Part shown: piece by piece, positions 1 to 43,827 of the stretch
Position numbering within the stretch: position 1 is the first letter of the stretch
How the letters are laid out: every line of letters begins with the position of its first letter
Origin: Laetmonice hystrix
Taxonomy: Eukaryota
Length of the DNA stretch: 64,000 nucleotides
Assembly: GCA_965235115.1 (NCBI GenBank)
Contig: OZ249436.1
Span: forward strand, 22,012,001 to 22,076,000
Direction: 5' to 3'
Notes under the pieces: model-generated
What the model was told of the DNA's origin: nothing
Database searches by the model: none
Seen by the model: only the letters and a program-made list of their open reading frames with translations
Translations under genes and position numbers: made by a program

Positions 1-319
1 CACTATATGATCAATAATATCAGTGTATTATTAGAGAATATCTGCTTAACTTTCCTTGGAAAATCTTAGCCAATATGTTATGTATCACAGGCCTGTATTC
101 TGGTCGATTTGGTGGTGCCACCTGGGGTCATGTAACAGAAGCTCCGATAAAATAAAATCTAATCATTCAACCTATACGTAAATTGAGTTTTTATTGTCGG
201 AAACATGCATATCTAACCTGCCATGCCAAGCAGACATTCGCAGAAATTATTTTAAACATTGAAAATGGCCAAAACATTACATTAAATTATAGAAGAAAAT
301 AAATAGTGGATCATAACCT
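1..319. repeat. LTDR, partial (cut by window start)
   Basis: Matches the last 319 bp of 4238-4687 and ends GGATCATAACCT. Confidence 0.85.
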
Positions 320-416
320 GTAGGGGCCTGATGGGAAACTCACTATACAAAGGAATTTTACTTCTGGTTGCCAAAGTCAACATTCAGAGAGTGTCACCCA
401 TACCCACCAAAGCATC

Positions 417-838
417 ATGGAGCCGCGGCAGTTTGTCACAAAAGTACAGGGCAGGTTACTGAGTAAAAGTAGACTCGTTTGTGGAGGGTGCCTCCTGTGG
501 ACAGAGGCCAGGACTGGTGGGGAGATTCACACTATGGGGTTCTAAGTCTTCGTTTGCCAGGTTCCTCTAAAAAGATTTATTTTCGTGTCCATAGATTAGC
601 CTATCAATTACACTACCTTATTCAACAACCAAATATTAACCACATTTCGGTTCAGATTTTAATGCCCCCCAACATCAATCTTCAGGGAGATAGGGTTGAA
701 ATTAGCCATTTGTGCCACCAAACCCTGTGTGTGAATCCCTCCCACCTGACCCTTGAGCCACGTCCAGTGAATGCTGCAAGACGTGTTTGTAATGCACAGC
801 AAGTTTGCACCCGGGAACACACCCCTAGGCCCCCCTAA
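417..838 (+). pseudogene. His-Me finger (His-Cys box, homing endonuclease-like) nuclease, frameshifted, copy 1
   Basis: ATG 417 (ATCATGG) gives MEPRQF...CGGCLLWTEARTGG. After a frameshift near the G-run 519-522 it reads GDSHYG...RVHRLAY...EISHLCHQTLCVNPSHLTLEPRPVNAARRVC...C...H, the I-PpoI-type zinc-binding His-Me motif. The 479 ORF has no ATG start. Confidence 0.85.
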
Positions 839-1451
839 CTGTTTTTTTCCTGGTAGGTGTAGCTCTAGTTTAGGTCTAACCCCGAGCTCTCTCACCGCCA
901 TAATTTATGTTCACATTTTTGTGTAGGTATGGTCACTGTGCTGAGTCTGTTTCAAGGCAAGATTTTTCTGGTAATAAGTTTTAGAATCCTGTGGTTCGCA
1001 GGTGTCCTTAAGCTTAAAAAGTGTCCTTCTTTTGTTGATTCGTGCATTCTTTTTCTTTGTTGACCCCCTGGCAAGTTTTCTGGCCATGTCCTGCTGCTGA
1101 CGTCGCAGCAGGCCACGTGTCACCCGTGTACCAGGAGTGACTGGGGCTCCCACAAACTCCGCTTGACTCAGGATTGAATCACCAATCCCTCGATTTACAG
1201 CATTCACAGCACAGTGCACTCTGGCAGCAAAGTTCCTTGAAAATGTTTTGTTCTTGGGTGTTGTACTGCTTATGGCCCTGTTGACAGCTTCACATTTCTG
1301 GGTGGTTAACAGGTGTTTGGTCTTTTCCAGGACTTTCTGGCCCAGCCTGTATTCAATCAGTCTGACCAGTTTCTCCTTGTCACCATCCGTGCATGTAAGG
1401 CCAAAGCCCTCAGGCAGGAATGCACTGTGTGACAGCCAGTTTTTCTTCTTT

Positions 1452-3273
1452 TTAGCCCCCAAACCCATCGGGTTTTGGGGGCTTATGATTCACCCTCTGT
1501 CCGTCCGTCCGTCCGTCCGTCCGTCCGTCCGTCCGTCCGTCCGTACGTCCGTCCGTCCGTCTGTCCGTCCGTCCGTGAACAGCGATATCTCAGAAACGTG
1601 CGGAACAATCATTTTCATATTTGAACACAAGATCAGGTACCATCCTGGCATGATGCACGTCAAAAGATTTTTTGATACGATCCAAGATGGCCGCCTGGCA
1701 GCCATATTGGTGAAATACACATTTACAGCGATATCTCTGTTAAAAGAATACCATTTTCATTCAAACTTAGCACAACGATAGGGGTTCATGGGGCAAACAT
1801 ACACGTCATTTTGTTTTCAGTTCGGATCCAATATGGCCGATCGGCAGCCATGTTTGTGTTGTTGGCAATGTCATTAGACTTTAGTGGCGTATAACTTGAC
1901 AATGGGGCGAGGTGTGGGTAAAGTTACTATGGGGAGCGAATAGGAAGTCATATATGAGGAATCTTTTGACACCATTATATTTGACCTTGGGTTGACATTT
2001 CAAGGTCATTCGAGGTCAGGTGTTTATTAAGGATCACTATGTCAGAAATGGTGTTCTTCAAGTCCTTTAGTGCTACGATGCATTATGCAAAGAGAGGCTT
2101 ATATTAGAATTCACCATGATCAAGATTTTGAAGAGTGCGTCCAAGATGGCCGCTCGACAGCCATATTGGCAAAATAGACATATACAGGCATATCTCTGTT
2201 AAAAGAATACCATTTTCATTCAAACTTGGCACAACGATAGGGGTTCATGAGGCAAACATACACGTCATTTTGTTTTCAGTTCGGATCCAATATGGCCGAT
2301 CGGCAGCCATGTTTGTGTTGTTGGCAATGTCATTAGACTTTAGTGGCGTATAACTTGACAATGGGGCGAGGTGTGGGTAAAGTTACTATGGGGAGCGAAT
2401 AGGAAGTCATATATGAGGAACCTTTTGACATCATTATATTTGACCTTGGGTTGACATTTCAAGGTCATTTGAGGTCAGGTGTTATTTATAGATTAGGAAG
2501 TCATATAATTATGAAGTTTCATTTGGCGCCATTTTCCATGACCGTGAGCGACCTTGAAAGGTCAATCAAGGTCATGCATTTTTTCAATAGCCTGGATCTT
2601 CAAAACAGTTGAAGATGCAGGTCAATGATATTTTTGACATCAGTCAAAATGGCCGTGTGGTGGCCATCTTGGATATTATTTGGAGCAATACCTCAGACAA
2701 AACGATCCTGATGTCTTTAAAATTTGGTGGAAAGAATATGAGGGGCAATGTGTGTGCCAATACATTGCCAGATCAGAGCAAATATGGCGACATGGCGGCC
2801 ATATTTATATCCCCCCCCCCCCCCAATAACACTGTTTTGGCTCATATCTCGAAAACGGTGCAATATAAGGCAATAGTTACTATTATTGACAGATAGGAAG
2901 TCATATATGAAGTTTGATTTGGCGCCATTTTCCATGACCTTGAGCGACCTTGAAAGGTCATGCATATTTTAATGGCCTGTACCTCCAAACCAGTTGAAGA
3001 TAACAGCATCTAATCTTGCGTGAAACATTACTTAATAACCAGGGACAGTCTATAGGGAGGACACAGGTCAAAAATATCATTAAAAATGGCTGCTTCGTGG
3101 CCATCTTGGATATAAAGAAATTCGAAGCAATAACTCTGACATTTTCTGGATTTCGTTCTTGCTGACAGAAAGCATGAGGGGTAACAAGCGTGCCAAAAGT
3201 ACACATAGTTCCTGGACCCACAGAAAATTTGTTCCTACTCAGTTGGGGGCTGTGACTCCGACGGGGTCTAGTT
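1452..3273 (+). mobile_element. Non-autonomous Helentron/DINE-1-like element (HINE), 1820 bp
   Basis: Inserted in a T-run. 5' hairpin AGCCCCCAAACCC-ATC-GGGTTTTGGGGGCT, then (GTCC)n microsatellite, internal ~459-bp duplication, 3' subterminal TTGGGGGCT, short hairpin GACTCCGACGGGGTC and end CTAG-TT. Absent from 13 sister units. Confidence 0.8.
1499..1577 (+). repeat. (GTCC)n microsatellite within HINE
   Basis: Direct reading; one unit longer than in the other two HINE copies. Confidence 0.95.
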
Positions 3274-4237
3274 TGCTTTGCAAGGCCTTGCCTTGCACAG
3301 CCGGCCCTCACTGTCGGTGATGGTGGCTGCAGCCTGATCTCCTCTTCCACTGTGTGTAGGTGAGCGGAGTAATATGAATTCTTCTTTGGTGGGTCTTACA
3401 TAGACACCTACGTCTGGTTCAGGCCTACCGGCCTGCTTTCTCAACTTGTAGGCGCAGTTACCAGGTTGAAAGCCATGTCTCCAGCTGTGCTTCTTTCTGC
3501 TACGTGATGTCATGGTAGTTTTCTAAGAAATTCTCTATAATTTAGGCGAATTTTTTTCAAAATCCTGTTCTAATCAAACAGAAAAATGATACTGAGTTTG
3601 ATCTGCCTGTTGGCTTCATATATACCCACTCCCACCCTCTTCCCAGGCAGCTCAGACTCTCAAGTGGCACCTTTGAACCCCTCCCCCTAATAACCTAGGC
3701 TTCCTGCCTGGGGTGGGTGACCACCTTTGAGGGGTCCATACATCCACACAGACACTTGGAGTACATCTCTTTTGATGTTTCTTTGAAGTGAACATCCTTC
3801 CCATATTCCCTCAACTGAATTTGACACTTTTGAAATCCAACATAGGGAGATATGGGGATAAATATAATAAAATGGACCTTTTTTTTACTGAAAATATGAC
3901 AGGGGATACTCACATGCTTCATAGGGAATGAAGATTCTCACTTTATATTTATTAATTTCAACTTTTGAACACTTTACATGTTGGCTTAATACATAACTAA
4001 AATGAGAAGTTCATAGATGAATTTATTCATTGTCTAATTTGTGCACAAAGTCAGAATACTGCTATGAGTGCAGGGCAAAATAGGGGTTTTTTATCTCCGA
4101 GTGTCCATATTGTATATGATCGATAACTCAGTCTTCATTTAGTCTACACCATTTATATTTTGTGTGGTTGTTGCAAACATATAACCATTAAAGGGGTCCA
4201 ATTTTGAACAGATTCGGGGTGATGGGTCTTGATCTGT

Positions 4238-4687
4238 AGGTCATGACCCCCTATTTAGCCAATGGGCTGCTGGTTGTCCCTCAAAATGGTATGGAGTGAA
4301 TGTATCTAGGGCCAAGAATGGATATAACCCCCCTGAATGTGCTCATCAAATACCACAGAGAAAAAGTTCACTATATGATCAATAATATCAGTGTATTATT
4401 AGAGAATATCTGCTTAACTTTCCTTGGAAAATCTTAGCCAATATGTTATGTATCACAGGCCTGTATTCTGGTCGATTTGGTGGTGCCACCTGGGGTCATG
4501 TAACAGAAGCTCCGATAAAATAAAATCTAATCATTCAACCTATACGTAAATTGAGTTTTTATTGTCGGAAACATGCATATCTAACCTGCCATGCCAAGCA
4601 GACATTCGCAGAAATTATTTTAAACATTGAAAATGGCCAAAACATTACATTAAATTATAGAAGAAAATAAATAGTGGATCATAACCT
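4238..4687. repeat. LTDR, 450 bp, with short imperfect TIRs
   Basis: Starts AGGTCATGACCC, ends GGATCATAACCT, flanked by GT on both sides; boundaries defined by its clean absence at six junctions and by the array end. Confidence 0.88.
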
Positions 4688-4784
4688 GTAGGGGCCTGAT
4701 GGGAAACTCACTATACAAAGGAATTTTACTTCTGGTTGCCAAAGTCAACATTCAGAGAGTGTCACCCATACCCACCAAAGCATC

Positions 4785-5206
4785 ATGGAGCCGCGGCAGT
4801 TTGTCACAAAAGTACAGGGCAGGTTACTGAGTAAAAGTAGACTCGTTTGTGGAGGGTGCCTCCTGTGGACAGAGGCCAGGACTGGTGGGGAGATTCACAC
4901 TATGGGGTTCTAAGTCTTCGTTTGCCAGGTTCCTCTAAAAAGATTTATTTTCGTGTCCATAGATTAGCCTATCAATTACACTACCTTATTCAACAACCAA
5001 ATATTAACCACATTTCGGTTCAGATTTTAATGCCCCCCAACATCAATCTTCAGGGAGATAGGGTTGAAATTAGCCATTTGTGCCACCAAACCCTGTGTGT
5101 GAATCCCTCCCACCTGACCCTTGAGCCACGTCCAGTGAATGCTGCAAGACGTGTTTGTAATGCACAGCAAGTTTGCACCCGGGAACACACCCCTAGGCCC
5201 CCCTAA
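4785..5206 (+). pseudogene. His-Me finger nuclease, frameshifted, copy 2
   Basis: Same translation as copy 1. Confidence 0.85.
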
Positions 5207-5278
5207 CTGTTTTTTTCCTGGTAGGTGTAGCTCTAGTTTAGGTCTAACCCCGAGCTCTCTCACCGCCATAATTTATGT

Positions 5279-6061
5279 TCACATTTTTGTGTAGGTATGG
5301 TCACTGTGCTGAGTCTGTTTCAAGGCAAGATTTTTCTGGTAATAAGTTTTAGAATCCTGTGGTTCGCAGGTGTCCTTAAGCTTAAAAAGTGTCCTTCTTT
5401 TGTTGATTCGTGCATTCTTTTTCTTTGTTGACCCCCTGGCAAGTTTTCTGGCCATGTCCTGCTGCTGACGTCGCAGCAGGCCACGTGTCACCCGTGTACC
5501 AGGAGTGACTGGGGCTCCCACAAACTCCGCTTGACTCAGGATTGAATCACCAATCCCTCGATTTACAGCATTCACAGCACAGTGCACTCTGGCAGCAAAG
5601 TTCCTTGAAAATGTTTTGTTCTTGGGTGTTGTACTGCTTATGGCCCTGTTGACAGCTTCACATTTCTGGGTGGTTAACAGGTGTTTGGTCTTTTCCAGGA
5701 CTTTCTGGCCCAGCCTGTATTCAATCAGTCTGACCAGTTTCTCCTTGTCACCATCCGTGCATGTAAGGCCAAAGCCCTCAGGCAGGAATGCACTGTGTGA
5801 CAGCCAGTTTTTCTTCTTTTTTGCTTTGCAAGGCCTTGCCTTGCACAGCCGGCCCTCACTGTCGGTGATGGTGGCTGCAGCCTGATCTCCTCTTCCACTG
5901 TGTGTAGGTGAGCGGAGTAATATGAATTCTTCTTTGGTGGGTCTTACATAGACACCTACGTCTGGTTCAGGCCTACCGGCCTGCTTTCTCAACTTGTAGG
6001 CGCAGTTACCAGGTTGAAAGCCATGTCTCCAGCTGTGCTTCTTTCTGCTACGTGATGTCAT
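5279..6061 (-). CDS. Internally deleted Kolobok-type DDE transposase (260-aa open ORF), copy 2
   Basis: ACCATG start and basic N-terminus. TTQKCEAVNRAISSTTPKNKTF resembles the catalytic-E motif region of Kolobok transposases. Basic C-terminal tail ends in DHTY. Too short to hold the two Asp motifs; apparent fusion point at LCKARPCKAK. Confidence 0.75.
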   Translation of the reverse strand: MTSRSRKKHSWRHGFQPGNCAYKLRKQAGRPEPDVGVYVRPTKEEFILLRSPTHSGRGDQAAATITDSEGRLCKARPCKAKKKKNWLSHSAFLPEGFGLTCTDGDKEKLVRLIEYRLGQKVLEKTKHLLTTQKCEAVNRAISSTTPKNKTFSRNFAARVHCAVNAVNRGIGDSILSQAEFVGAPVTPGTRVTRGLLRRQQQDMARKLARGSTKKKNARINKRRTLFKLKDTCEPQDSKTYYQKNLALKQTQHSDHTYTKM

Positions 6062-6785
6062 GGTAGTTTTCTAAGAAATTCTCTATAATTTAGGCGAATT
6101 TTTTTCAAAATCCTGTTCTAATCAAACAGAAAAATGATACTGAGTTTGATCTGCCTGTTGGCTTCATATATACCCACTCCCACCCTCTTCCCAGGCAGCT
6201 CAGACTCTCAAGTGGCACCTTTGAACCCCTCCCCCTAATAACCTAGGCTTCCTGCCTGGGGTGGGTGACCACCTTTGAGGGGTCCATACATCCACACAGA
6301 CACTTGGAGTACATCTCTTTTGATGTTTCTTTGAAGTGAACATCCTTCCCATATTCCCTCAACTGAATTTGACACTTTTGAAATCCAACATAGGGAGATA
6401 TGGGGATAAATATAATAAAATGGACCTTTTTTTTACTGAAAATATGACAGGGGATACTCACATGCTTCATAGGGAATGAAGATTCTCACTTTATATTTAT
6501 TAATTTCAACTTTTGAACACTTTACATGTTGGCTTAATACATAACTAAAATGAGAAGTTCATAGATGAATTTATTCATTGTCTAATTTGTGCACAAAGTC
6601 AGAATACTGCTATGAGTGCAGGGCAAAATAGGGGTTTTTTATCTCCGAGTGTCCATATTGTATATGATCGATAACTCAGTCTTCATTTAGTCTACACCAT
6701 TTATATTTTGTGTGGTTGTTGCAAACATATAACCATTAAAGGGGTCCAATTTTGAACAGATTCGGGGTGATGGGTCTTGATCTGT

Positions 6786-7235
6786 AGGTCATGACCCCCT
6801 ATTTAGCCAATGGGCTGCTGGTTGTCCCTCAAAATGGTATGGAGTGAATGTATCTAGGGCCAAGAATGGATATAACCCCCCTGAATGTGCTCATCAAATA
6901 CCACAGAGAAAAAGTTCACTATATGATCAATAATATCAGTGTATTATTAGAGAATATCTGCTTAACTTTCCTTGGAAAATCTTAGCCAATATGTTATGTA
7001 TCACAGGCCTGTATTCTGGTCGATTTGGTGGTGCCACCTGGGGTCATGTAACAGAAGCTCCGATAAAATAAAATCTAATCATTCAACCTATACGTAAATT
7101 GAGTTTTTATTGTCGGAAACATGCATATCTAACCTGCCATGCCAAGCAGACATTCGCAGAAATTATTTTAAACATTGAAAATGGCCAAAACATTACATTA
7201 AATTATAGAAGAAAATAAATAGTGGATCATAACCT
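6786..7235. repeat. LTDR, 450 bp
   Basis: Copy of 4238-4687. Confidence 0.88.
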
Positions 7236-7332
7236 GTAGGGGCCTGATGGGAAACTCACTATACAAAGGAATTTTACTTCTGGTTGCCAAAGTCAACATT
7301 CAGAGAGTGTCACCCATACCCACCAAAGCATC

Positions 7333-7754
7333 ATGGAGCCGCGGCAGTTTGTCACAAAAGTACAGGGCAGGTTACTGAGTAAAAGTAGACTCGTTTGTGG
7401 AGGGTGCCTCCTGTGGACAGAGGCCAGGACTGGTGGGGAGATTCACACTATGGGGTTCTAAGTCTTCGTTTGCCAGGTTCCTCTAAAAAGATTTATTTTC
7501 GTGTCCATAGATTAGCCTATCAATTACACTACCTTATTCAACAACCAAATATTAACCACATTTCGGTTCAGATTTTAATGCCCCCCAACATCAATCTTCA
7601 GGGAGATAGGGTTGAAATTAGCCATTTGTGCCACCAAACCCTGTGTGTGAATCCCTCCCACCTGACCCTTGAGCCACGTCCAGTGAATGCTGCAAGACGT
7701 GTTTGTAATGCACAGCAAGTTTGCACCCGGGAACACACCCCTAGGCCCCCCTAA
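7333..7754 (+). pseudogene. His-Me finger nuclease, frameshifted, copy 3
   Basis: Same translation as copy 1. Confidence 0.85.
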
Positions 7755-7826
7755 CTGTTTTTTTCCTGGTAGGTGTAGCTCTAGTTTAGGTCTAACCCCG
7801 AGCTCTCTCACCGCCATAATTTATGT

Positions 7827-10425
7827 TCACATTTTTGTGTAGGTATGGTCACTGTGCTGAGTCTGTTTCAAGGCAAGATTTTTCTGGTAATAAGTTTTAG
7901 AATCCTGTGGTTCGCAGGTGTCCTTAAGCTTAAAAAGTGTCCTTCTTTTGTTGATTCGTGCATTCTTTTTCTTTGTTGACCCCCTGGCAAGTTTTCTGGC
8001 CATGTCCTGCTGCTGACGTCGCAGCAGGCCACGTGTCACCCGTGTACCAGGAGTGACTGGGGCTCCCACAAACTCCGCTTGACTCAGGATTGAATCACCA
8101 ATCCCTCGATTTACAGCATTCACAGCACAGTGCACTCTGGCAGCAAAGTTCCTTGAAAATGTTTTGTTCTTGGGTGTTGTACTGCTTATGGCCCTGTTGA
8201 CAGCTTCACATTTCTGGGTGGTTAACAGGTGTTTGGTCTTTTCCAGGACTTTCTGGCCCAGCCTGTATTCAATCAGTCTGACCAGTTTCTCCTTGTCACC
8301 ATCCGTGCATGTAAGGCCAAAGCCCTCAGGCAGGAATGCACTGTGTGACAGCCAGTTTTTCTTCTTTTTAGCCCCCAAACCCATCGGGTTTTGGGGGCTT
8401 ATGATTCACCCTCTGTCCGTCCGTCCGTCCGTCCGTCCGTCCGTCCGTCCGTCCGTACGTCCGTCCGTCCGTCTGTCCGTCCGTCCGTGAACAGCGATAT
8501 CTCAGAAACGTGCGGAACAATCATTTTCATATTTGAACACAAGATCAGGTACCATCCTGGCATGATGCACGTCAAAAGATTTTTTGATACGATCCAAGAT
8601 GGCCGCCTGGCAGCCATATTGGTGAAATACACATTTACAGCGATATCTCTGTTAAAAGAATACCATTTTCATTCAAACTTAGCACAACGATAGGGGTTCA
8701 TGGGGCAAACATACACGTCATTTTGTTTTCAGTTCGGATCCAATATGGCCGATCGGCAGCCATGTTTGTGTTGTTGGCAATGTCATTAGACTTTAGTGGC
8801 GTATAACTTGACAATGGGGCGAGGTGTGGGTAAAGTTACTATGGGGAGCGAATAGGAAGTCATATATGAGGAATCTTTTGACACCATTATATTTGACCTT
8901 GGGTTGACATTTCAAGGTCATTCGAGGTCAGGTGTTTATTAAGGATCACTATGTCAGAAATGGTGTTCTTCAAGTCCTTTAGTGCTACGATGCATTATGC
9001 AAAGAGAGGCTTATATTAGAATTCACCATGATCAAGATTTTGAAGAGTGCGTCCAAGATGGCCGCTCGACAGCCATATTGGCAAAATAGACATATACAGG
9101 CATATCTCTGTTAAAAGAATACCATTTTCATTCAAACTTGGCACAACGATAGGGGTTCATGAGGCAAACATACACGTCATTTTGTTTTCAGTTCGGATCC
9201 AATATGGCCGATCGGCAGCCATGTTTGTGTTGTTGGCAATGTCATTAGACTTTAGTGGCGTATAACTTGACAATGGGGCGAGGTGTGGGTAAAGTTACTA
9301 TGGGGAGCGAATAGGAAGTCATATATGAGGAACCTTTTGACATCATTATATTTGACCTTGGGTTGACATTTCAAGGTCATTTGAGGTCAGGTGTTATTTA
9401 TAGATTAGGAAGTCATATAATTATGAAGTTTCATTTGGCGCCATTTTCCATGACCGTGAGCGACCTTGAAAGGTCAATCAAGGTCATGCATTTTTTCAAT
9501 AGCCTGGATCTTCAAAACAGTTGAAGATGCAGGTCAATGATATTTTTGACATCAGTCAAAATGGCCGTGTGGTGGCCATCTTGGATATTATTTGGAGCAA
9601 TACCTCAGACAAAACGATCCTGATGTCTTTAAAATTTGGTGGAAAGAATATGAGGGGCAATGTGTGTGCCAATACATTGCCAGATCAGAGCAAATATGGC
9701 GACATGGCGGCCATATTTATATCCCCCCCCCCCCCCAATAACACTGTTTTGGCTCATATCTCGAAAACGGTGCAATATAAGGCAATAGTTACTATTATTG
9801 ACAGATAGGAAGTCATATATGAAGTTTGATTTGGCGCCATTTTCCATGACCTTGAGCGACCTTGAAAGGTCATGCATATTTTAATGGCCTGTACCTCCAA
9901 ACCAGTTGAAGATAACAGCATCTAATCTTGCGTGAAACATTACTTAATAACCAGGGACAGTCTATAGGGAGGACACAGGTCAAAAATATCATTAAAAATG
10001 GCTGCTTCGTGGCCATCTTGGATATAAAGAAATTCGAAGCAATAACTCTGACATTTTCTGGATTTCGTTCTTGCTGACAGAAAGCATGAGGGGTAACAAG
10101 CGTGCCAAAAGTACACATAGTTCCTGGACCCACAGAAAATTTGTTCCTACTCAGTTGGGGGCTGTGACTCCGACGGGGTCTAGTTTGCTTTGCAAGGCCT
10201 TGCCTTGCACAGCCGGCCCTCACTGTCGGTGATGGTGGCTGCAGCCTGATCTCCTCTTCCACTGTGTGTAGGTGAGCGGAGTAATATGAATTCTTCTTTG
10301 GTGGGTCTTACATAGACACCTACGTCTGGTTCAGGCCTACCGGCCTGCTTTCTCAACTTGTAGGCGCAGTTACCAGGTTGAAAGCCATGTCTCCAGCTGT
10401 GCTTCTTTCTGCTACGTGATGTCAT
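7827..10425 (-). pseudogene. Deleted transposase disrupted by HINE, copy 3
   Basis: Split ORFs 7827-8384 and 10180-10425. Confidence 0.8.
8368..10185 (+). mobile_element. HINE (Helentron-like), 1816 bp
   Basis: Same element at the same site as 1452-3273, one GTCC unit shorter. Confidence 0.8.
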
Positions 10426-11599: not shown

Positions 11600-11696
11600 G
11601 TAGGGGCCTGATGGGAAACTCACTATACAAAGGAATTTTACTTCTGGTTGCCAAAGTCAACATTCAGAGAGTGTCACCCATACCCACCAAAGCATC

Positions 11697-12118: not shown

Positions 12119-12190
12119 CTGTTTTTTTCCTGGTAGGTGTAGCTCTAGTTTAGGTCTAACCCCGAGCTCTCTCACCGCCATAATTTATGT

Positions 12191-14147: not shown

Positions 14148-14244
14148 GTAGGGGCCTGATGGGAAACTCACTATACAAAGGAATTTTACTTCTGGTTGCC
14201 AAAGTCAACATTCAGAGAGTGTCACCCATACCCACCAAAGCATC

Positions 14245-30866: not shown

Positions 30867-30938
30867 CTGTTTTTTTCCTGGTAGGTGTAGCTCTAGTTTA
30901 GGTCTAACCCCGAGCTCTCTCACCGCCATAATTTATGT

Positions 30939-32962: not shown

Positions 32963-33034
32963 CTGTTTTTTTCCTGGTAGGTGTAGCTCTAGTTTAGGTC
33001 TAACCCCGAGCTCTCTCACCGCCATAATTTATGT

Positions 33035-33817: not shown

Positions 33818-34541
33818 GGTAGTTTTCTAAGAAATTCTCTATAATTTAGGCGAATTTTTTTCAAAATCCTGTTCTAATCAAACAGAAAAATGATACTGAG
33901 TTTGATCTGCCTGTTGGCTTCATATATACCCACTCCCACCCTCTTCCCAGGCAGCTCAGACTCTCAAGTGGCACCTTTGAACCCCTCCCCCTAATAACCT
34001 AGGCTTCCTGCCTGGGGTGGGTGACCACCTTTGAGGGGTCCATACATCCACACAGACACTTGGAGTACATCTCTTTTGATGTTTCTTTGAAGTGAACATC
34101 CTTCCCATATTCCCTCAACTGAATTTGACACTTTTGAAATCCAACATAGGGAGATATGGGGATAAATATAATAAAATGGACCCTTTTTTTACTGAAAATA
34201 TGACAGGGGATACTCACATGCTTCATAGGGAATGAAGATTCTCACTTTATATTTATTAATTTCAACTTTTGAACACTTTACATGTTGGCTTAATACATAA
34301 CTAAAATGAGAAGTTCATAGATGAATTTATTCATTGTCTAATTTGTGCACAAAGTCAGAATACTGCTATGAGTGCAGGGCAAAATAGGGGTTTTTTATCT
34401 CCGAGTGTCCATATTGTATATGATCGATAACTCAGTCTTCATTTAGTCTACACCATTTATATTTTGTGTGGTTGTTGCAAACATATAACCATTAAAGGGG
34501 TCCAATTTTGAACAGATTCGGGGTGATGGGTCTTGATCTGT

Positions 34542-34991
34542 AGGTCATGACCCCCTATTTAGCCAATGGGCTGCTGGTTGTCCCTCAAAATGGTATGGAG
34601 TGAATGTATCTAGGGCCAAGAATGGATATAACCCCCCTGAATGTGCTCATCAAATACCACAGAGAAAAAGTTCACTATATGATCAATAATATCAGTGTAT
34701 TATTAGAGAATATCTGCTTAACTTTCCTTGGAAAATCTTAGCCAATATGTTATGTATCACAGGCCTGTATTCTGGTCGATTTGGTGGTGCCACCTGGGGT
34801 CATGTAACAGAAGCTCCGATAAAATAAAATCTAATCATTCAACCTATACGTAAATTGAGTTTTTATTGTCGGAAACATGCATATCTAACCTGCCATGCCA
34901 AGCAGACATTCGCAGAAATTATTTTAAACATTGAAAATGGCCAAAACATTACATTAAATTATAGAAGAAAATAAATAGTGGATCATAACCT
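34542..34991. repeat. LTDR, 450 bp
   Basis: Copy of 4238-4687. Confidence 0.88.
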
Positions 34992-35088
34992 GTAGGGGCC
35001 TGATGGGAAACTCACTATACAAAGGAATTTTACTTCTGGTTGCCAAAGTCAACATTCAGAGAGTGTCACCCATACCCACCAAAGCATC

Positions 35089-35510
35089 ATGGAGCCGCGG
35101 CAGTTTGTCACAAAAGTACAGGGCAGGTTACTGAGTAAAAGTAGACTCGTTTGTGGAGGGTGCCTCCTGTGGACAGAGGCCAGGACTGGTGGGGAGATTC
35201 ACACTATGGGGTTCTAAGTCTTCGTTTGCCAGGTTCCTCTAAAAAGATTTATTTTCGTGTCCATAGATTAGCCTATCAATTACACTACCTTATTCAACAA
35301 CCAAATATTAACCACATTTCGGTTCAGATTTTAATGCCCCCCAACATCAATCTTCAGGGAGATAGGGTTGAAATTAGCCATTTGTGCCACCAAACCCTGT
35401 GTGTGAATCCCTCCCACCTGACCCTTGAGCCACGTCCAGTGAATGCTGCAAGACGTGTTTGTAATGCACAGCAAGTTTGCACCCGGGAACACACCCCTAG
35501 GCCCCCCTAA
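35089..35510 (+). pseudogene. His-Me finger nuclease, frameshifted, copy 13
   Basis: Same translation as copy 1. Confidence 0.85.
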
Positions 35511-35582
35511 CTGTTTTTTTCCTGGTAGGTGTAGCTCTAGTTTAGGTCTAACCCCGAGCTCTCTCACCGCCATAATTTATGT

Positions 35583-36365
35583 TCACATTTTTGTGTAGGT
35601 ATGGTCACTGTGCTGAGTCTGTTTCAAGGCAAGATTTTTCTGGTAATAAGTTTTAGAATCCTGTGGTTCGCAGGTGTCCTTAAGCTTAAAAAGTGTCCTT
35701 CTTTTGTTGATTCGTGCATTCTTTTTCTTTGTTGACCCCCTGGCAAGTTTTCTGGCCATGTCCTGCTGCTGACGTCGCAGCAGGCCACGTGTCACCCGTG
35801 TACCAGGAGTGACTGGGGCTCCCACAAACTCCGCTTGACTCAGGATTGAATCACCAATCCCTCGATTTACAGCATTCACAGCACAGTGCACTCTGGCAGC
35901 AAAGTTCCTTGAAAATGTTTTGTTCTTGGGTGTTGTACTGCTTATGGCCCTGTTGACAGCTTCACATTTCTGGGTGGTTAACAGGTGTTTGGTCTTTTCC
36001 AGGACTTTCTGGCCCAGCCTGTATTCAATCAGTCTGACCAGTTTCTCCTTGTCACCATCCGTGCATGTAAGGCCAAAGCCCTCAGGCAGGAATGCACTGT
36101 GTGACAGCCAGTTTTTCTTCTTTTTTGCTTTGCAAGGCCTTGCCTTGCACAGCCGGCCCTCACTGTCGGTGATGGTGGCTGCAGCCTGATCTCCTCTTCC
36201 ACTGTGTGTAGGTGAGCGGAGTAATATGAATTCTTCTTTGGTGGGTCTTACATAGACACCTACGTCTGGTTCAGGCCTACCGGCCTGCTTTCTCAACTTG
36301 TAGGCGCAGTTACCAGGTTGAAAGCCATGTCTCCAGCTGTGCTTCTTTCTGCTACGTGATGTCAT
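35583..36365 (-). CDS. Internally deleted DDE transposase, 260 aa, copy 13
   Basis: Same translation as 5279-6061. Confidence 0.75.
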   Translation of the reverse strand: MTSRSRKKHSWRHGFQPGNCAYKLRKQAGRPEPDVGVYVRPTKEEFILLRSPTHSGRGDQAAATITDSEGRLCKARPCKAKKKKNWLSHSAFLPEGFGLTCTDGDKEKLVRLIEYRLGQKVLEKTKHLLTTQKCEAVNRAISSTTPKNKTFSRNFAARVHCAVNAVNRGIGDSILSQAEFVGAPVTPGTRVTRGLLRRQQQDMARKLARGSTKKKNARINKRRTLFKLKDTCEPQDSKTYYQKNLALKQTQHSDHTYTKM

Positions 36366-37184
36366 GGTAGTTTTCTAAGAAATTCTCTATAATTTAGGCG
36401 AATTTTTTTCAAAATCCTGTTCTAATCAAACAGAAAAATGATACTGAGTTTGATCTGCCTGTTGGCTTCATATATACCCACTCCCACCCTCTTCCCAGGC
36501 AGCTCAGACTCTCAAGTGGCACCTTTGAACCCCTCCCCCTAATAACCTAGGCTTCCTGCCTGGGGTGGGTGACCACCTTTGAGGGGTCCATACATCCACA
36601 CAGACACTTGGAGTACATCTCTTTTGATGTTTCTTTGAAGTGAACATCCTTCCCATATTCCCTCAACTGAATTTGACACTTTTGAAATCCAACATAGGGA
36701 GATATGGGGATAAATATAATAAAATGGACCTTTTTTTTACTGAAAATATGACAGGGGATACTCACATGCTTCATAGGGAATGAAGATTCTCACTTTATAT
36801 TTATTAATTTCAACTTTTGAACACTTTACATGTTGGCTTAATACATAACTAAAATGAGAAGTTCATAGATGAATTTATTCATTGTCTAATTTGTGCACAA
36901 AGTCAGAATACTGCTATGAGTGCAGGGCAAAATAGGGGTTTTTTATCTCCGAGTGTCCATATTGTATATGATCGATAACTCAGTCTTCATTTAGTCTACA
37001 CCATTTATATTTTGTGTGGTTGTTGCAAACATATAACCATTAAAGGGGTCCAATTTTGAACAGATTCGGGGTGATGGGTCTTGATCTGTAGGGGCCTGAT
37101 GGGAAACTCACTATACAAAGGAATTTTACTTCTGGTTGCCAAAGTCAACATTCAGAGAGTGTCACCCATACCCACCAAAGCATC

Positions 37185-37606
37185 ATGGAGCCGCGGCAGT
37201 TTGTCACAAAAGTACAGGGCAGGTTACTGAGTAAAAGTAGACTCGTTTGTGGAGGGTGCCTCCTGTGGACAGAGGCCAGGACTGGTGGGGAGATTCACAC
37301 TATGGGGTTCTAAGTCTTCGTTTGCCAGGTTCCTCTAAAAAGATTTATTTTCGTGTCCATAGATTAGCCTATCAATTACACTACCTTATTCAACAACCAA
37401 ATATTAACCACATTTCGGTTCAGATTTTAATGCCCCCCAACATCAATCTTCAGGGAGATAGGGTTGAAATTAGCCATTTGTGCCACCAAACCCTGTGTGT
37501 GAATCCCTCCCACCTGACCCTTGAGCCACGTCCAGTGAATGCTGCAAGACGTGTTTGTAATGCACAGCAAGTTTGCACCCGGGAACACACCCCTAGGCCC
37601 CCCTAA
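37185..37606 (+). pseudogene. His-Me finger nuclease, frameshifted, copy 14
   Basis: Same translation as copy 1. Confidence 0.85.
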
Positions 37607-37678
37607 CTGTTTTTTTCCTGGTAGGTGTAGCTCTAGTTTAGGTCTAACCCCGAGCTCTCTCACCGCCATAATTTATGT

Positions 37679-38461
37679 TCACATTTTTGTGTAGGTATGG
37701 TCACTGTGCTGAGTCTGTTTCAAGGCAAGATTTTTCTGGTAATAAGTTTTAGAATCCTGTGGTTCGCAGGTGTCCTTAAGCTTAAAAAGTGTCCTTCTTT
37801 TGTTGATTCGTGCATTCTTTTTCTTTGTTGACCCCCTGGCAAGTTTTCTGGCCATGTCCTGCTGCTGACGTCGCAGCAGGCCACGTGTCACCCGTGTACC
37901 AGGAGTGACTGGGGCTCCCACAAACTCCGCTTGACTCAGGATTGAATCACCAATCCCTCGATTTACAGCATTCACAGCACAGTGCACTCTGGCAGCAAAG
38001 TTCCTTGAAAATGTTTTGTTCTTGGGTGTTGTACTGCTTATGGCCCTGTTGACAGCTTCACATTTCTGGGTGGTTAACAGGTGTTTGGTCTTTTCCAGGA
38101 CTTTCTGGCCCAGCCTGTATTCAATCAGTCTGACCAGTTTCTCCTTGTCACCATCCGTGCATGTAAGGCCAAAGCCCTCAGGCAGGAATGCACTGTGTGA
38201 CAGCCAGTTTTTCTTCTTTTTTGCTTTGCAAGGCCTTGCCTTGCACAGCCGGCCCTCACTGTCGGTGATGGTGGCTGCAGCCTGATCTCCTCTTCCACTG
38301 TGTGTAGGTGAGCGGAGTAATATGAATTCTTCTTTGGTGGGTCTTACATAGACACCTACGTCTGGTTCAGGCCTACCGGCCTGCTTTCTCAACTTGTAGG
38401 CGCAGTTACCAGGTTGAAAGCCATGTCTCCAGCTGTGCTTCTTTCTGCTACGTGATGTCAT
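37679..38461 (-). CDS. Internally deleted DDE transposase, 260 aa, copy 14
   Basis: Same translation as 5279-6061. Confidence 0.75.
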   Translation of the reverse strand: MTSRSRKKHSWRHGFQPGNCAYKLRKQAGRPEPDVGVYVRPTKEEFILLRSPTHSGRGDQAAATITDSEGRLCKARPCKAKKKKNWLSHSAFLPEGFGLTCTDGDKEKLVRLIEYRLGQKVLEKTKHLLTTQKCEAVNRAISSTTPKNKTFSRNFAARVHCAVNAVNRGIGDSILSQAEFVGAPVTPGTRVTRGLLRRQQQDMARKLARGSTKKKNARINKRRTLFKLKDTCEPQDSKTYYQKNLALKQTQHSDHTYTKM

Positions 38462-39280
38462 GGTAGTTTTCTAAGAAATTCTCTATAATTTAGGCGAATT
38501 TTTTTCAAAATCCTGTTCTAATCAAACAGAAAAATGATACTGAGTTTGATCTGCCTGTTGGCTTCATATATACCCACTCCCACCCTCTTCCCAGGCAGCT
38601 CAGACTCTCAAGTGGCACCTTTGAACCCCTCCCCCTAATAACCTAGGCTTCCTGCCTGGGGTGGGTGACCACCTTTGAGGGGTCCATACATCCACACAGA
38701 CACTTGGAGTACATCTCTTTTGATGTTTCTTTGAAGTGAACATCCTTCCCATATTCCCTCAACTGAATTTGACACTTTTGAAATCCAACATAGGGAGATA
38801 TGGGGATAAATATAATAAAATGGACCTTTTTTTTACTGAAAATATGACAGGGGATACTCACATGCTTCATAGGGAATGAAGATTCTCACTTTATATTTAT
38901 TAATTTCAACTTTTGAACACTTTACATGTTGGCTTAATACATAACTAAAATGAGAAGTTCATAGATGAATTTATTCATTGTCTAATTTGTGCACAAAGTC
39001 AGAATACTGCTATGAGTGCAGGGCAAAATAGGGGTTTTTTATCTCCGAGTGTCCATATTGTATATGATCGATAACTCAGTCTTCATTTAGTCTACACCAT
39101 TTATATTTTGTGTGGTTGTTGCAAACATATAACCATTAAAGGGGTCCAATTTTGAACAGATTCGGGGTGATGGGTCTTGATCTGTAGGGGCCTGATGGGA
39201 AACTCACTATACAAAGGAATTTTACTTCTGGTTGCCAAAGTCAACATTCAGAGAGTGTCACCCATACCCACCAAAGCATC

Positions 39281-39702
39281 ATGGAGCCGCGGCAGTTTGT
39301 CACAAAAGTACAGGGCAGGTTACTGAGTAAAAGTAGACTCGTTTGTGGAGGGTGCCTCCTGTGGACAGAGGCCAGGACTGGTGGGGAGATTCACACTATG
39401 GGGTTCTAAGTCTTCGTTTGCCAGGTTCCTCTAAAAAGATTTATTTTCGTGTCCATAGATTAGCCTATCAATTACACTACCTTATTCAACAACCAAATAT
39501 TAACCACATTTCGGTTCAGATTTTAATGCCCCCCAACATCAATCTTCAGGGAGATAGGGTTGAAATTAGCCATTTGTGCCACCAAACCCTGTGTGTGAAT
39601 CCCTCCCACCTGACCCTTGAGCCACGTCCAGTGAATGCTGCAAGACGTGTTTGTAATGCACAGCAAGTTTGCACCCGGGAACACACCCCTAGGCCCCCCT
39701 AA
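39281..39702 (+). pseudogene. His-Me finger nuclease, frameshifted, copy 15
   Basis: Same translation as copy 1. Confidence 0.85.
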
Positions 39703-39774
39703 CTGTTTTTTTCCTGGTAGGTGTAGCTCTAGTTTAGGTCTAACCCCGAGCTCTCTCACCGCCATAATTTATGT

Positions 39775-40557
39775 TCACATTTTTGTGTAGGTATGGTCAC
39801 TGTGCTGAGTCTGTTTCAAGGCAAGATTTTTCTGGTAATAAGTTTTAGAATCCTGTGGTTCGCAGGTGTCCTTAAGCTTAAAAAGTGTCCTTCTTTTGTT
39901 GATTCGTGCATTCTTTTTCTTTGTTGACCCCCTGGCAAGTTTTCTGGCCATGTCCTGCTGCTGACGTCGCAGCAGGCCACGTGTCACCCGTGTACCAGGA
40001 GTGACTGGGGCTCCCACAAACTCCGCTTGACTCAGGATTGAATCACCAATCCCTCGATTTACAGCATTCACAGCACAGTGCACTCTGGCAGCAAAGTTCC
40101 TTGAAAATGTTTTGTTCTTGGGTGTTGTACTGCTTATGGCCCTGTTGACAGCTTCACATTTCTGGGTGGTTAACAGGTGTTTGGTCTTTTCCAGGACTTT
40201 CTGGCCCAGCCTGTATTCAATCAGTCTGACCAGTTTCTCCTTGTCACCATCCGTGCATGTAAGGCCAAAGCCCTCAGGCAGGAATGCACTGTGTGACAGC
40301 CAGTTTTTCTTCTTTTTTGCTTTGCAAGGCCTTGCCTTGCACAGCCGGCCCTCACTGTCGGTGATGGTGGCTGCAGCCTGATCTCCTCTTCCACTGTGTG
40401 TAGGTGAGCGGAGTAATATGAATTCTTCTTTGGTGGGTCTTACATAGACACCTACGTCTGGTTCAGGCCTACCGGCCTGCTTTCTCAACTTGTAGGCGCA
40501 GTTACCAGGTTGAAAGCCATGTCTCCAGCTGTGCTTCTTTCTGCTACGTGATGTCAT
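39775..40557 (-). CDS. Internally deleted DDE transposase, 260 aa, copy 15
   Basis: Same translation as 5279-6061. Confidence 0.75.
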   Translation of the reverse strand: MTSRSRKKHSWRHGFQPGNCAYKLRKQAGRPEPDVGVYVRPTKEEFILLRSPTHSGRGDQAAATITDSEGRLCKARPCKAKKKKNWLSHSAFLPEGFGLTCTDGDKEKLVRLIEYRLGQKVLEKTKHLLTTQKCEAVNRAISSTTPKNKTFSRNFAARVHCAVNAVNRGIGDSILSQAEFVGAPVTPGTRVTRGLLRRQQQDMARKLARGSTKKKNARINKRRTLFKLKDTCEPQDSKTYYQKNLALKQTQHSDHTYTKM

Positions 40558-41376
40558 GGTAGTTTTCTAAGAAATTCTCTATAATTTAGGCGAATTTTTT
40601 TCAAAATCCTGTTCTAATCAAACAGAAAAATGATACTGAGTTTGATCTGCCTGTTGGCTTCATATATACCCACTCCCACCCTCTTCCCAGGCAGCTCAGA
40701 CTCTCAAGTGGCACCTTTGAACCCCTCCCCCTAATAACCTAGGCTTCCTGCCTGGGGTGGGTGACCACCTTTGAGGGGTCCATACATCCACACAGACACT
40801 TGGAGTACATCTCTTTTGATGTTTCTTTGAAGTGAACATCCTTCCCATATTCCCTCAACTGAATTTGACACTTTTGAAATCCAACATAGGGAGATATGGG
40901 GATAAATATAATAAAATGGACCTTTTTTTTACTGAAAATATGACAGGGGATACTCACATGCTTCATAGGGAATGAAGATTCTCACTTTATATTTATTAAT
41001 TTCAACTTTTGAACACTTTACATGTTGGCTTAATACATAACTAAAATGAGAAGTTCATAGATGAATTTATTCATTGTCTAATTTGTGCACAAAGTCAGAA
41101 TACTGCTATGAGTGCAGGGCAAAATAGGGGTTTTTTATCTCCGAGTGTCCATATTGTATATGATCGATAACTCAGTCTTCATTTAGTCTACACCATTTAT
41201 ATTTTGTGTGGTTGTTGCAAACATATAACCATTAAAGGGGTCCAATTTTGAACAGATTCGGGGTGATGGGTCTTGATCTGTAGGGGCCTGATGGGAAACT
41301 CACTATACAAAGGAATTTTACTTCTGGTTGCCAAAGTCAACATTCAGAGAGTGTCACCCATACCCACCAAAGCATC

Positions 41377-41798
41377 ATGGAGCCGCGGCAGTTTGTCACA
41401 AAAGTACAGGGCAGGTTACTGAGTAAAAGTAGACTCGTTTGTGGAGGGTGCCTCCTGTGGACAGAGGCCAGGACTGGTGGGGAGATTCACACTATGGGGT
41501 TCTAAGTCTTCGTTTGCCAGGTTCCTCTAAAAAGATTTATTTTCGTGTCCATAGATTAGCCTATCAATTACACTACCTTATTCAACAACCAAATATTAAC
41601 CACATTTCGGTTCAGATTTTAATGCCCCCCAACATCAATCTTCAGGGAGATAGGGTTGAAATTAGCCATTTGTGCCACCAAACCCTGTGTGTGAATCCCT
41701 CCCACCTGACCCTTGAGCCACGTCCAGTGAATGCTGCAAGACGTGTTTGTAATGCACAGCAAGTTTGCACCCGGGAACACACCCCTAGGCCCCCCTAA
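41377..41798 (+). pseudogene. His-Me finger nuclease, frameshifted, copy 16
   Basis: Same translation as copy 1. Confidence 0.85.
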
Positions 41799-41870
41799 CT
41801 GTTTTTTTCCTGGTAGGTGTAGCTCTAGTTTAGGTCTAACCCCGAGCTCTCTCACCGCCATAATTTATGT

Positions 41871-42653
41871 TCACATTTTTGTGTAGGTATGGTCACTGTG
41901 CTGAGTCTGTTTCAAGGCAAGATTTTTCTGGTAATAAGTTTTAGAATCCTGTGGTTCGCAGGTGTCCTTAAGCTTAAAAAGTGTCCTTCTTTTGTTGATT
42001 CGTGCATTCTTTTTCTTTGTTGACCCCCTGGCAAGTTTTCTGGCCATGTCCTGCTGCTGACGTCGCAGCAGGCCACGTGTCACCCGTGTACCAGGAGTGA
42101 CTGGGGCTCCCACAAACTCCGCTTGACTCAGGATTGAATCACCAATCCCTCGATTTACAGCATTCACAGCACAGTGCACTCTGGCAGCAAAGTTCCTTGA
42201 AAATGTTTTGTTCTTGGGTGTTGTACTGCTTATGGCCCTGTTGACAGCTTCACATTTCTGGGTGGTTAACAGGTGTTTGGTCTTTTCCAGGACTTTCTGG
42301 CCCAGCCTGTATTCAATCAGTCTGACCAGTTTCTCCTTGTCACCATCCGTGCATGTAAGGCCAAAGCCCTCAGGCAGGAATGCACTGTGTGACAGCCAGT
42401 TTTTCTTCTTTTTTGCTTTGCAAGGCCTTGCCTTGCACAGCCGGCCCTCACTGTCGGTGATGGTGGCTGCAGCCTGATCTCCTCTTCCACTGTGTGTAGG
42501 TGAGCGGAGTAATATGAATTCTTCTTTGGTGGGTCTTACATAGACACCTACGTCTGGTTCAGGCCTACCGGCCTGCTTTCTCAACTTGTAGGCGCAGTTA
42601 CCAGGTTGAAAGCCATGTCTCCAGCTGTGCTTCTTTCTGCTACGTGATGTCAT
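41871..42653 (-). CDS. Internally deleted DDE transposase, 260 aa, copy 16
   Basis: Same translation as 5279-6061. Confidence 0.75.
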   Translation of the reverse strand: MTSRSRKKHSWRHGFQPGNCAYKLRKQAGRPEPDVGVYVRPTKEEFILLRSPTHSGRGDQAAATITDSEGRLCKARPCKAKKKKNWLSHSAFLPEGFGLTCTDGDKEKLVRLIEYRLGQKVLEKTKHLLTTQKCEAVNRAISSTTPKNKTFSRNFAARVHCAVNAVNRGIGDSILSQAEFVGAPVTPGTRVTRGLLRRQQQDMARKLARGSTKKKNARINKRRTLFKLKDTCEPQDSKTYYQKNLALKQTQHSDHTYTKM

Positions 42654-43377
42654 GGTAGTTTTCTAAGAAATTCTCTATAATTTAGGCGAATTTTTTTCAA
42701 AATCCTGTTCTAATCAAACAGAAAAATGATACTGAGTTTGATCTGCCTGTTGGCTTCATATATACCCACTCCCACCCTCTTCCCAGGCAGCTCAGACTCT
42801 CAAGTGGCACCTTTGAACCCCTCCCCCTAATAACCTAGGCTTCCTGCCTGGGGTGGGTGACCACCTTTGAGGGGTCCATACATCCACACAGACACTTGGA
42901 GTACATCTCTTTTGATGTTTCTTTGAAGTGAACATCCTTCCCATATTCCCTCAACTGAATTTGACACTTTTGAAATCCAACATAGGGAGATATGGGGATA
43001 AATATAATAAAATGGACCTTTTTTTTACTGAAAATATGACAGGGGATACTCACATGCTTCATAGGGAATGAAGATTCTCACTTTATATTTATTAATTTCA
43101 ACTTTTGAACACTTTACATGTTGGCTTAATACATAACTAAAATGAGAAGTTCATAGATGAATTTATTCATTGTCTAATTTGTGCACAAAGTCAGAATACT
43201 GCTATGAGTGCAGGGCAAAATAGGGGTTTTTTATCTCCGAGTGTCCATATTGTATATGATCGATAACTCAGTCTTCATTTAGTCTACACCATTTATATTT
43301 TGTGTGGTTGTTGCAAACATATAACCATTAAAGGGGTCCAATTTTGAACAGATTCGGGGTGATGGGTCTTGATCTGT

Positions 43378-43827
43378 AGGTCATGACCCCCTATTTAGCC
43401 AATGGGCTGCTGGTTGTCCCTCAAAATGGTATGGAGTGAATGTATCTAGGGCCAAGAATGGATATAACCCCCCTGAATGTGCTCATCAAATACCACAGAG
43501 AAAAAGTTCACTATATGATCAATAATATCAGTGTATTATTAGAGAATATCTGCTTAACTTTCCTTGGAAAATCTTAGCCAATATGTTATGTATCACAGGC
43601 CTGTATTCTGGTCGATTTGGTGGTGCCACCTGGGGTCATGTAACAGAAGCTCCGATAAAATAAAATCTAATCATTCAACCTATACGTAAATTGAGTTTTT
43701 ATTGTCGGAAACATGCATATCTAACCTGCCATGCCAAGCAGACATTCGCAGAAATTATTTTAAACATTGAAAATGGCCAAAACATTACATTAAATTATAG
43801 AAGAAAATAAATAGTGGATCATAACCT
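43378..43827. repeat. Terminal LTDR, 450 bp (array end)
   Basis: Complete LTDR; similarity to the array stops after ...ATAACCT-GT. Confidence 0.9.

Follow-up and report, generated by a model that had tools for sequence, protein, structure and literature searches.

A 49-kb tandem array built from broken copies of a DNA transposon, probably of the KolobokP lineage

The DNA considered here is a 64-kb window (C1:22,012,001-22,076,000) from a eukaryotic assembly that comprises 35 contigs and 627 Mb. Much of the window is taken up by a long tandem array of two transposon parts, an internal unit (INT) carrying broken transposase and nuclease genes and a long terminal direct repeat (LTDR). We consider it very likely that this array is a multimer of a non-autonomous KolobokP element which inserted once and then grew locally by repeated unequal exchange. 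KolobokP elements are DNA transposons of the Kolobok superfamily that have long terminal direct repeats. Among eukaryotic transposons, no lineage other than KolobokP is known to combine a transposase with a homing-type nuclease. The locus is of interest as a case of a DNA transposon turning into a macrosatellite while its parent is still present in the genome.

Results

We derived the structure of the array from self-BLAST and 25-mer copy counts, followed by reading of the junctions, and traced its left boundary in 20 kb of extra sequence to the left of the window. Self-comparison, a check put forward with the original prediction for this DNA, revealed a near-identical tandem structure from base 1 to about 43,830, with repeated blocks of up to 10.9 kb at 99.95-100% identity, and the 25-mer counts place the segments of the array in 16, 10-11 or 3 copies. 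GC content is 0.41-0.45 to about 44 kb of the window and 0.46-0.58 thereafter. Tandem Repeats Finder missed the array because its periods go no further than 500 bp, and an Rfam search of the window gave no match. There are three building blocks, namely the LTDR of 448 bp, the INT of 2,100 bp and an insertion of 1,814-1,818 bp found in three of the INTs. The array continues for 5,224 bp to the left of the window, where it stops at an LTDR start; this extension adds two INTs, two LTDRs and the rest of the LTDR that is cut by the window start (from window position -129). The whole array therefore measures 49,051 bp and holds 18 INTs and 13 LTDRs, with an LTDR end at both of its ends and its right end at window base 43826. 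The original prediction had described 16 near-identical INT copies in the window, all of which we recovered, alternating with shared direct repeats of about 450 bp in an array of at least 44 kb at 1-43827 that ended exactly on an LTDR end. The large array, the repeats and the LTDR end are all there, with corrections: the LTDR is exactly 448 bp (GG...CC), the last base is 43826 and not 43827, the array is longer to the left, and the alternation holds for only 10 of the 16 in-window INTs, the other six directly adjoining the previous INT.

If a denotes LTDR plus INT, d the same with the 1.8-kb insertion, a putative Helentron-associated non-autonomous element (HINE), in the INT, and b an INT alone, the units run a a d a d a a a d a b a b b a b b b and are followed by the final LTDR. 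All LTDRs and HINEs are given here on the plus strand and all INTs on the minus strand, which is the direct strand of the element. The window opens with the right 318 bp (1-318) of a 448-bp LTDR, after which comes the third INT of the array and first of the window (319-4238), divided by a HINE at 1454-3271 into parts of 1135 bp (A) and 967 bp (B). An LTDR of 448 bp (4239-4686) then leads to the 2,100-bp INT that serves as our reference (4687-6786), with TGTA at both ends, and to the 448-bp reference LTDR (6787-7234), which reads GGTCATGACC...GGATCATAACC and has imperfect terminal inverted repeats. The next INT (7235-11150) carries a HINE at 8370-10183; it is followed by an LTDR (11151-11598), INT (11599-13698), LTDR (13699-14146), INT (14147-16246), LTDR (16247-16694), INT (16695-18794) and LTDR (18795-19242), and then by the last of the HINE-bearing INTs (19243-23158, HINE at 20378-22191) and a further LTDR (23159-23606). 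From this point INTs begin to adjoin one another. The INT at 23607-25706 has its final TGTA (25703-25706) in common with the next INT (25703-27802), with no LTDR between them. After the LTDR at 27803-28250 there are three INTs in direct succession (28251-30350, 30347-32446 and 32443-34542), and after that at 34543-34990 there are four (34991-37090, 37087-39186, 39183-41282 and, as the last INT, 41279-43378), before the terminal LTDR (43379-43826) closes the array. At each of these six INT-INT joins only one of two TGTAs is left, so that the period is 2,096 bp.

The units are extraordinarily uniform. The 18 INTs differ at only one of 2,100 positions, a T to C change at INT position 1741 that is the only substitution among them and is carried by the units starting at 25703 and 32443, and the 13 LTDRs are identical except for base 1 of the leftmost copy. 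Larger blocks repeat as well: 3272-13700 and 15280-25708 are 100% identical over 10.4 kb, and 23606-34544 and 30346-41284 are 99.99% identical over 10.9 kb. Successive HINE-bearing INTs are 6,916 and 12,008 bp apart and the two carriers of the single substitution 6,740 bp apart, and all three distances are sums of whole units. Dispersed monomers of the element are only 97.9-99.1% identical to the window INT and, given that identity within the array is higher than this and higher than in other arrays, most of the growth is likely to have been local and recent. Taken as a sequence pattern, the block structure points to unequal exchange as the mechanism of that growth.

Both flanks of the array belong to an interspersed repeat of about 1.13 kb, here called H, for which a first look returned 236 and 298 candidates for the two flank parts. 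Its right part lies at window 43827-44688 (no strand assigned), beginning with TGT, and its left part at L010:4507-4774. Where the host repeat is uninterrupted, it reads ...GGCATGTTAGGGG across the insertion site, whilst the left flank of the array ends ...GGCATGTA and the right flank starts TGTTAGGGG, so that TGT stands on both sides; the leftmost LTDR starts with A instead of G. Since both array ends are LTDR ends and TGT is duplicated relative to the uninterrupted host repeat, the array occupies one target site: one element inserted once into a copy of the host repeat. A loose end at 43827 with the left flank joined to the right had suggested an empty allele; this reading was rejected because both flanks are part of a repeat that has hundreds of uninterrupted copies.

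The LTDRs end in GG...CC and have imperfect terminal inverted repeats of their own, GGTCATGACCCCCTATTTA matching the reverse complement of the right end GGTTATGATCCACTATTTA at 16 of 19 positions. Within the multimer every LTDR has TGTA on both sides and is flanked by 7-bp CTGTAGG repeats, and exactly one TGTA is kept at every INT-INT junction, both at the six joins here and at 163 exact junctions genome-wide. The first 10 bases of the LTDR form a perfect palindrome, and each INT|LTDR junction (window 6777-6800 and every other such junction) is a 24-bp semi-palindrome, GGTCTTGATC-TGTA-GGTCATGACC, centred on TGTA. No palindrome is present at LTDR|INT. The 2.5-kb unit has six semi-palindromes of similar quality, so the one at INT|LTDR is not significant alone.

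Beyond the array we read 17 further loci, comprising 13 monomers (which also have LTDRs of 448 bp) and four others: a solo LTDR, a truncated INT-LTDR, an INT that lacks LTDRs and an array of INTs only. Target-site duplications were scored in the 15 two-ended elements, that is the 13 monomers, the solo LTDR and an autonomous copy described below; the duplication is a perfect 4 bp in 12 of them, as with TAAA at the solo LTDR (L022), and imperfect in the other three. A 3-bp duplication combined with a 449-bp LTDR was considered and ruled out, as the 12 elements show 4-bp duplications with 448-bp boundaries. The three elements with imperfect duplications (L027, L031 and L033) and the left end of the array have TGTA on one side; a few donor bases may travel with the element in such cases, comparable to the excision footprints suggested in PMC9587614.

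Each INT contains, on the plus strand, the remnant of a His-Me (His-Cys box) nuclease gene, which in the reference unit lies at 4785-5206 with its start codon at 4785 and matches Pfam zf-His_Me_endon (PF05551, E 1.6e-13), and, convergent with it on the minus strand, an open frame of 263 aa (5279-6070; 260 aa from the Met at 6061). The frame alone has no Pfam match, and it could be identified only through comparison with an intact parent. We searched the genome with the C-terminal 178 residues of the frame and scored the best 150 of 516 candidates, among which five lie in 670-codon open frames near C1:72.2 Mb. The autonomous element read there (locus L011) is 4,178 bp long, with two LTDRs of 448 bp that are identical at 448 of 448 positions and a TGTG target-site duplication on both sides. 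Its two genes are convergent and both intact; one encodes a 667-aa transposase, residues 106-485 of which match Pfam PF20700 ('Mutator-like transposase', E 3e-52), and the other a nuclease of 164 aa (PF05551, E 3.4e-14). Against this parent, the 263-aa frame proves to be transposase residues 1-76 joined in frame to residues 485-667, at 96-97% identity; residues 77-484 are deleted, which removes about 1,220 bp and with it practically the whole PF20700 domain, and the window INT is otherwise the autonomous INT. Its nuclease gene differs from the intact one by insertions of 5 and 10 bp, each of which shifts the frame, and by an additional 33-bp insertion upstream of the start codon. The pseudogene still keeps the core SHLCH...N motif region. 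The arrayed INT is thus a non-autonomous derivative with both genes broken, and having lost the catalytic domain of its transposase and the reading frame of its nuclease, it depends on a few intact copies elsewhere in the genome.

These results bear out much of what was originally proposed for the genes: a His-Cys-box nuclease does face a convergent transposase remnant, that remnant does derive from a transposase, probably of the kind expected (although the catalytic domain itself is deleted), and the arrayed copies are a defective derivative, deleted and frameshifted relative to an autonomous element with the same LTDR, for which a genome search had been recommended and which was found intact at 4,178 bp. 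The Pfam comparison suggested at the same time was informative for the nuclease (PF05551), the open frame having been recognised via the parent instead.

With the deleted part of the transposase as query, there were 12 matches among 14 genome candidates, six of them intact. Five of these intact autonomous copies lie in one segmental duplication (C1:72158448-72265287, loci L011 and L012) and the sixth at C10:5.017 Mb. Two of the five C1 copies were examined and are identical over 4,178 bp, with flanks also in common and an intact nuclease gene in both, and the intact copies may therefore represent only two independent insertions, the C1 duplication and C10. Of all solved structures, the 164-aa nuclease matches I-PpoI best (E 9.5e-5, residues 77-125 aligned with 80-127); this alignment spans SHLCH, C.NP.HL..E and N..R..C, and the same stretch is present in the window copies. 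In a large protein database, the C-terminal part of the transposase matched nine proteins at E <=0.001 among 538 candidates, with 47-73% identity to that part, and eight of the nine contain PF20700.

The 1,814-1,818-bp insertion in three INTs (those starting at 319, 7235 and 19243) is unrelated to KolobokP. In the first it is 1,818 bp long and holds a (GTCC)n microsatellite at 1499-1576; in the other two it is 1,814 bp long and the copies are identical. It lies between two Ts at INT position 1135, in a T run and within about 10 bases of the transposase deletion joint. The insertion is one member of a dispersed family, for which a first look returned 2,546 candidates; many of its copies are full-length, at 96-99% identity, and all nine that were examined have the same termini, a T on both sides and no target-site duplication. 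That it might be an alternative form of the INT could be ruled out on these grounds, given that it has a dispersed family of its own with the same ends in nine of nine copies. A palindromic inverted repeat forms the 5' end; its partner, located about 25 bp from the 3' end, is followed by a stem-loop and CTAG, and the interior contains the microsatellite and repeats spaced at 459 bp. Sub-terminal inverted repeats, a 3' stem-loop, insertion at TT without duplication and internal simple or tandem repeats are features described for HINEs (Thomas et al. 2014, PMC4067079), and the sub-terminal inverted repeats, 3' stem-loop, microsatellite, insertion between Ts and variable T run at the boundary are shared with HINE/DINE-1 elements as presented there. 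From this end structure, we assign the insertion to the Helentron-associated non-autonomous elements. Its importance for the array is that of a passenger serving as a marker of duplication.

Arrays of the same family are widespread. Counting exact 32-mers across junctions (reversed controls gave 0), we found 163 INT-INT and 307 LTDR-INT junctions genome-wide, and hence at least 470 INTs. Other arrays include those at C10:3.463-3.596 Mb (about 133 kb), C1:66.48-66.61 Mb (about 121 kb), C29:1.65-1.72 Mb, C3:8.497-8.559 Mb and C4:32.575-32.66 Mb, among others, and sizes range from two units to more than 100 kb. At C6:21887938-21985531 there is an array of about 98 kb that is almost pure INT-INT, with 44 exact junctions and a period of about 2.09 kb; it is a satellite that has lost its LTDRs. 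A shorter variant of the unit is seen at C4:32604818-32658610, where the array has a period of about 2,423 bp. The array in the window is therefore typical of this genome and not exceptional, and describing it as an unusual snapshot of transposon-to-satellite conversion, as had been done from the window, overstated its singularity, both because several larger arrays exist in the same genome and because multimers of this kind have already been reported (PMC9587614).

The KolobokP lineage was described in 2022 by Kojima and Bao (PMC9587614) as having LTDRs of about 450 or 660 bp, with their own terminal inverted repeats of 11-18 bp or more and RR...YY ends, target-site duplications of 3-5 bp and solo LTDRs, together with an INT coding for a transposase of the DDD/E type and, downstream on the opposite strand, a His-Me finger nuclease. 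Multimers of the form (LTDR-INT)n-LTDR are part of that account, with the LTDR sometimes missing and a micro-deletion of 3-4 bp at the INT-INT junction. Every KolobokP feature that could be tested was found here, and the identity originally proposed for the element fits on all of them: an LTDR some 450 bp long that has terminal inverted repeats and ends in RR...YY, 4-bp target-site duplications, convergent genes, solo LTDRs, monomers and both (LTDR-INT)n-LTDR and LTDR-(INT)n-LTDR multimers, internally deleted non-autonomous derivatives, and an INT that starts and ends with the same four bases (TATA in KolobokP-1_MeMe, TGTA here), one set of which is kept at the micro-deleted INT-INT joins. Compared by eye with the published alignment (PMC9587614), the 667-aa protein is collinear with KolobokP-1_CorFlu, -1_DrPo, -2_SiCo and -4_MeMe through all conserved blocks, among them NVE.DS.Y.NP, CP.HPG, the second-D region and TTQKCEAVNR, and the ISHLCH motif of the nuclease occurs in the nuclease alignment of the same paper. 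The differences lie at the level of the family. Table S1 of PMC9587614 has no family of the size pair 4,178/448 bp, and in its four supplementary files the exact strings of the LTDR and of both proteins are absent, only short motifs of the two proteins matching. Sizes of arrays are not stated in its main text, nor does the term satellite appear there, as compared with 18 units here, and in the copies arrayed here both genes are broken. The element is probably an undescribed family of this described lineage, as judged from its sequence. Literature searches on Kolobok, satellites and tandem repeats returned no title on KolobokP arrays among the results listed, and the literature search found no paper on PF20700.

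Discussion

The course of events that we propose begins with the single insertion, which would have expanded in place to 18 INTs and 13 LTDRs (49 kb). Units that were misaligned between sister chromatids or homologues would have undergone unequal exchange repeatedly, with blocks of two to five units duplicated each time. A Helentron-type element would have landed in one INT before or during this growth and been copied to three, and at least one LTDR would have been precisely lost, leaving one TGTA, the resulting LTDR-less junction then being copied to six. The original prediction had left growth open between unequal exchange and amplification through circles or rolling-circle copying. Unequal exchange is favoured because the duplicated multi-unit blocks lie in different registers, where rolling-circle copying of one unit would produce a uniform ladder.

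Several points weigh against this account or limit how far it can be taken. The array has an imperfect target-site duplication (TGTA to its left, TGTT to its right), and its first LTDR begins with A rather than G. The order and number of the units are taken from the assembly, and polishing could be a partial cause of the near-perfect identity; Logan contigs of one sample over 41279-46000 provided no usable depth and no spanning record. The transposase domain is named 'Mutator-like' by Pfam and not Kolobok, and the Kolobok assignment draws on architecture and on a by-eye comparison of alignments rather than a scored one. Furthermore, the data are compatible both with spontaneous exchanges and with exchanges started by the nuclease of the element acting in trans, and LTDR loss may reflect either excision by the transposase or deletion between the 7-bp CTGTAGG repeats.

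The involvement of the nuclease deserves particular consideration, since Kojima and Bao proposed that it cuts in or at the LTDR, provoking an unequal crossover and so building multimers (PMC9587614). Applied here, nuclease supplied by the intact copies would act in trans and cut arrayed units at the LTDR ends or close to them. LTDR-INT units would then be added or removed when the break is repaired using a misaligned sister unit as template, or when compatible 4-nt ends are joined again. Such 'induced unequal crossover' would be a driver on top of local growth by unequal exchange and not an alternative identity for the array, and we regard it as possible but doubtful. The genome contains six intact autonomous copies, with an intact nuclease gene read in two, and the nuclease resembles I-PpoI, which cuts a semi-palindromic site to leave 4-nt overhangs (PMC9587614). 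The position of TGTA beside all LTDRs of the multimer and the single copy kept at INT-INT joins, here and genome-wide, fit cleavage at this point, as does the semi-palindrome centred on TGTA at INT|LTDR, and the formation of many arrays by one family is also in keeping with an active driver. However, PMC9587614 leaves the cleavage site open for every KolobokP nuclease, the semi-palindrome has several equals in the unit and no counterpart at LTDR|INT, and the nuclease genes within the arrays are broken. Plain unequal exchange explains the block pattern without a nuclease, and deletion between the CTGTAGG repeats could explain LTDR loss equally well. We rate as somewhat less probable again, and on balance unlikely, the fuller proposition that the arrays were made by the homing-type nuclease cutting in trans at the TGTA beside the LTDRs, with the ends repaired from a misaligned sister or re-joined. 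Were it true, one nuclease activity would explain why arrays grow, how LTDRs are lost precisely with one TGTA left behind and how circles of LTDR or LTDR+INT are released, and a selfish nuclease would be manufacturing satellite DNA. With the parent present, markers within the arrays and many arrays to compare, the hypothesis is directly testable.

The remaining alternatives concern where the extra units came from, and each appears improbable. Growth could have proceeded via a circular LTDR+INT unit, by rolling-circle copying or by repeated integration of circles into an LTDR, and a circular 'translocatable unit' has been proposed for these elements (PMC9587614); long uniform runs such as the 44 INT-INT junctions about 2.09 kb apart on C6 would suit such a process. 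The array in the window is, however, a mosaic of three unit types in which the HINE and the substitution recur within multi-unit blocks, so that copying of a single circle would need later exchange in addition, and we see little likelihood of this route here. It is slightly less likely still that the array is an artefact, with a short multimer inflated or its units mis-ordered by the assembler. The units are practically identical and the array is seen at the level of the assembly only, as such an error would have it, but the presence or absence of LTDRs, the HINE and the substitution give a non-periodic pattern that long accurate reads can anchor, and at least 10 separate arrays of the family were assembled on at least seven chromosomes. 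Contigs from public runs of the same organism also show LTDR-to-INT back-joints, which may come from the same sample and from any array. Least probable, in our estimation, is that the multimer was transposed ready-made from another locus. The array does start and finish with transposon ends, flanked by a partial target-site duplication, and the outermost ends of a multimer might in principle serve as substrate for the transposase; against this, the HINE-bearing INT was met only in this array among the copies scored, and identity within the array is far above that to monomers elsewhere and above the 99-100% of units in other arrays.

Local growth of a KolobokP insertion invites comparison with other systems. 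The nuclease has in common with I-PpoI and the His-Cys box homing endonucleases of group I introns the aligned S-H catalytic pair, the H, E and N of the His-Me finger and the Cys/His zinc ligands, features predicted from alignment. It differs in residing in a transposon beside a transposase and not in an intron, in being frameshifted within this array, and in being known here from sequence alone, with its target left open in PMC9587614. Arrays of TRIM/Cassandra retrotransposons and transposon-derived satellites, a comparison drawn in PMC9587614, likewise have a shared terminal direct repeat and growth by unequal exchange; here the element is a DNA transposon without reverse transcription, the units of 2.1-2.5 kb are much longer, and the terminal repeats carry inverted repeats of their own. 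With macrosatellites the array shares long head-to-tail runs of kilobase units, found at several loci and homogenised within each array.

The lineage and its multimers are already published (PMC9587614), and our findings extend that lineage rather than introduce a new kind of element. New here are the family, which is probably undescribed, how large its arrays become, a satellite with hardly any LTDRs and a clear record of how blocks were duplicated. Six intact copies, at least 470 non-autonomous INTs and an almost LTDR-free 2.1-kb satellite make for a young and very active system, in which the Helentron insertion and the presence or absence of LTDRs act as built-in markers that record the order of duplication.

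Other repeats in the window

To the right of the array the window contains several shorter tandem repeats. A 73-bp satellite, C-rich on the plus strand with a GC skew of -0.30, occupies 51608-53769 (30 copies) and 54535-55317 (11 copies) with 92-94% matches. A 42-bp repeat at 55624-56469 has 20 copies with 98% matches and is open in all frames, as expected for a period of 42 bp, and a 62-bp repeat at 60263-61569 has 21 copies with 97% matches. At 49108-49294 lies a 45/85-bp repeat of hairpin-like units (GCTGCACCA..TGGTGCAGC).

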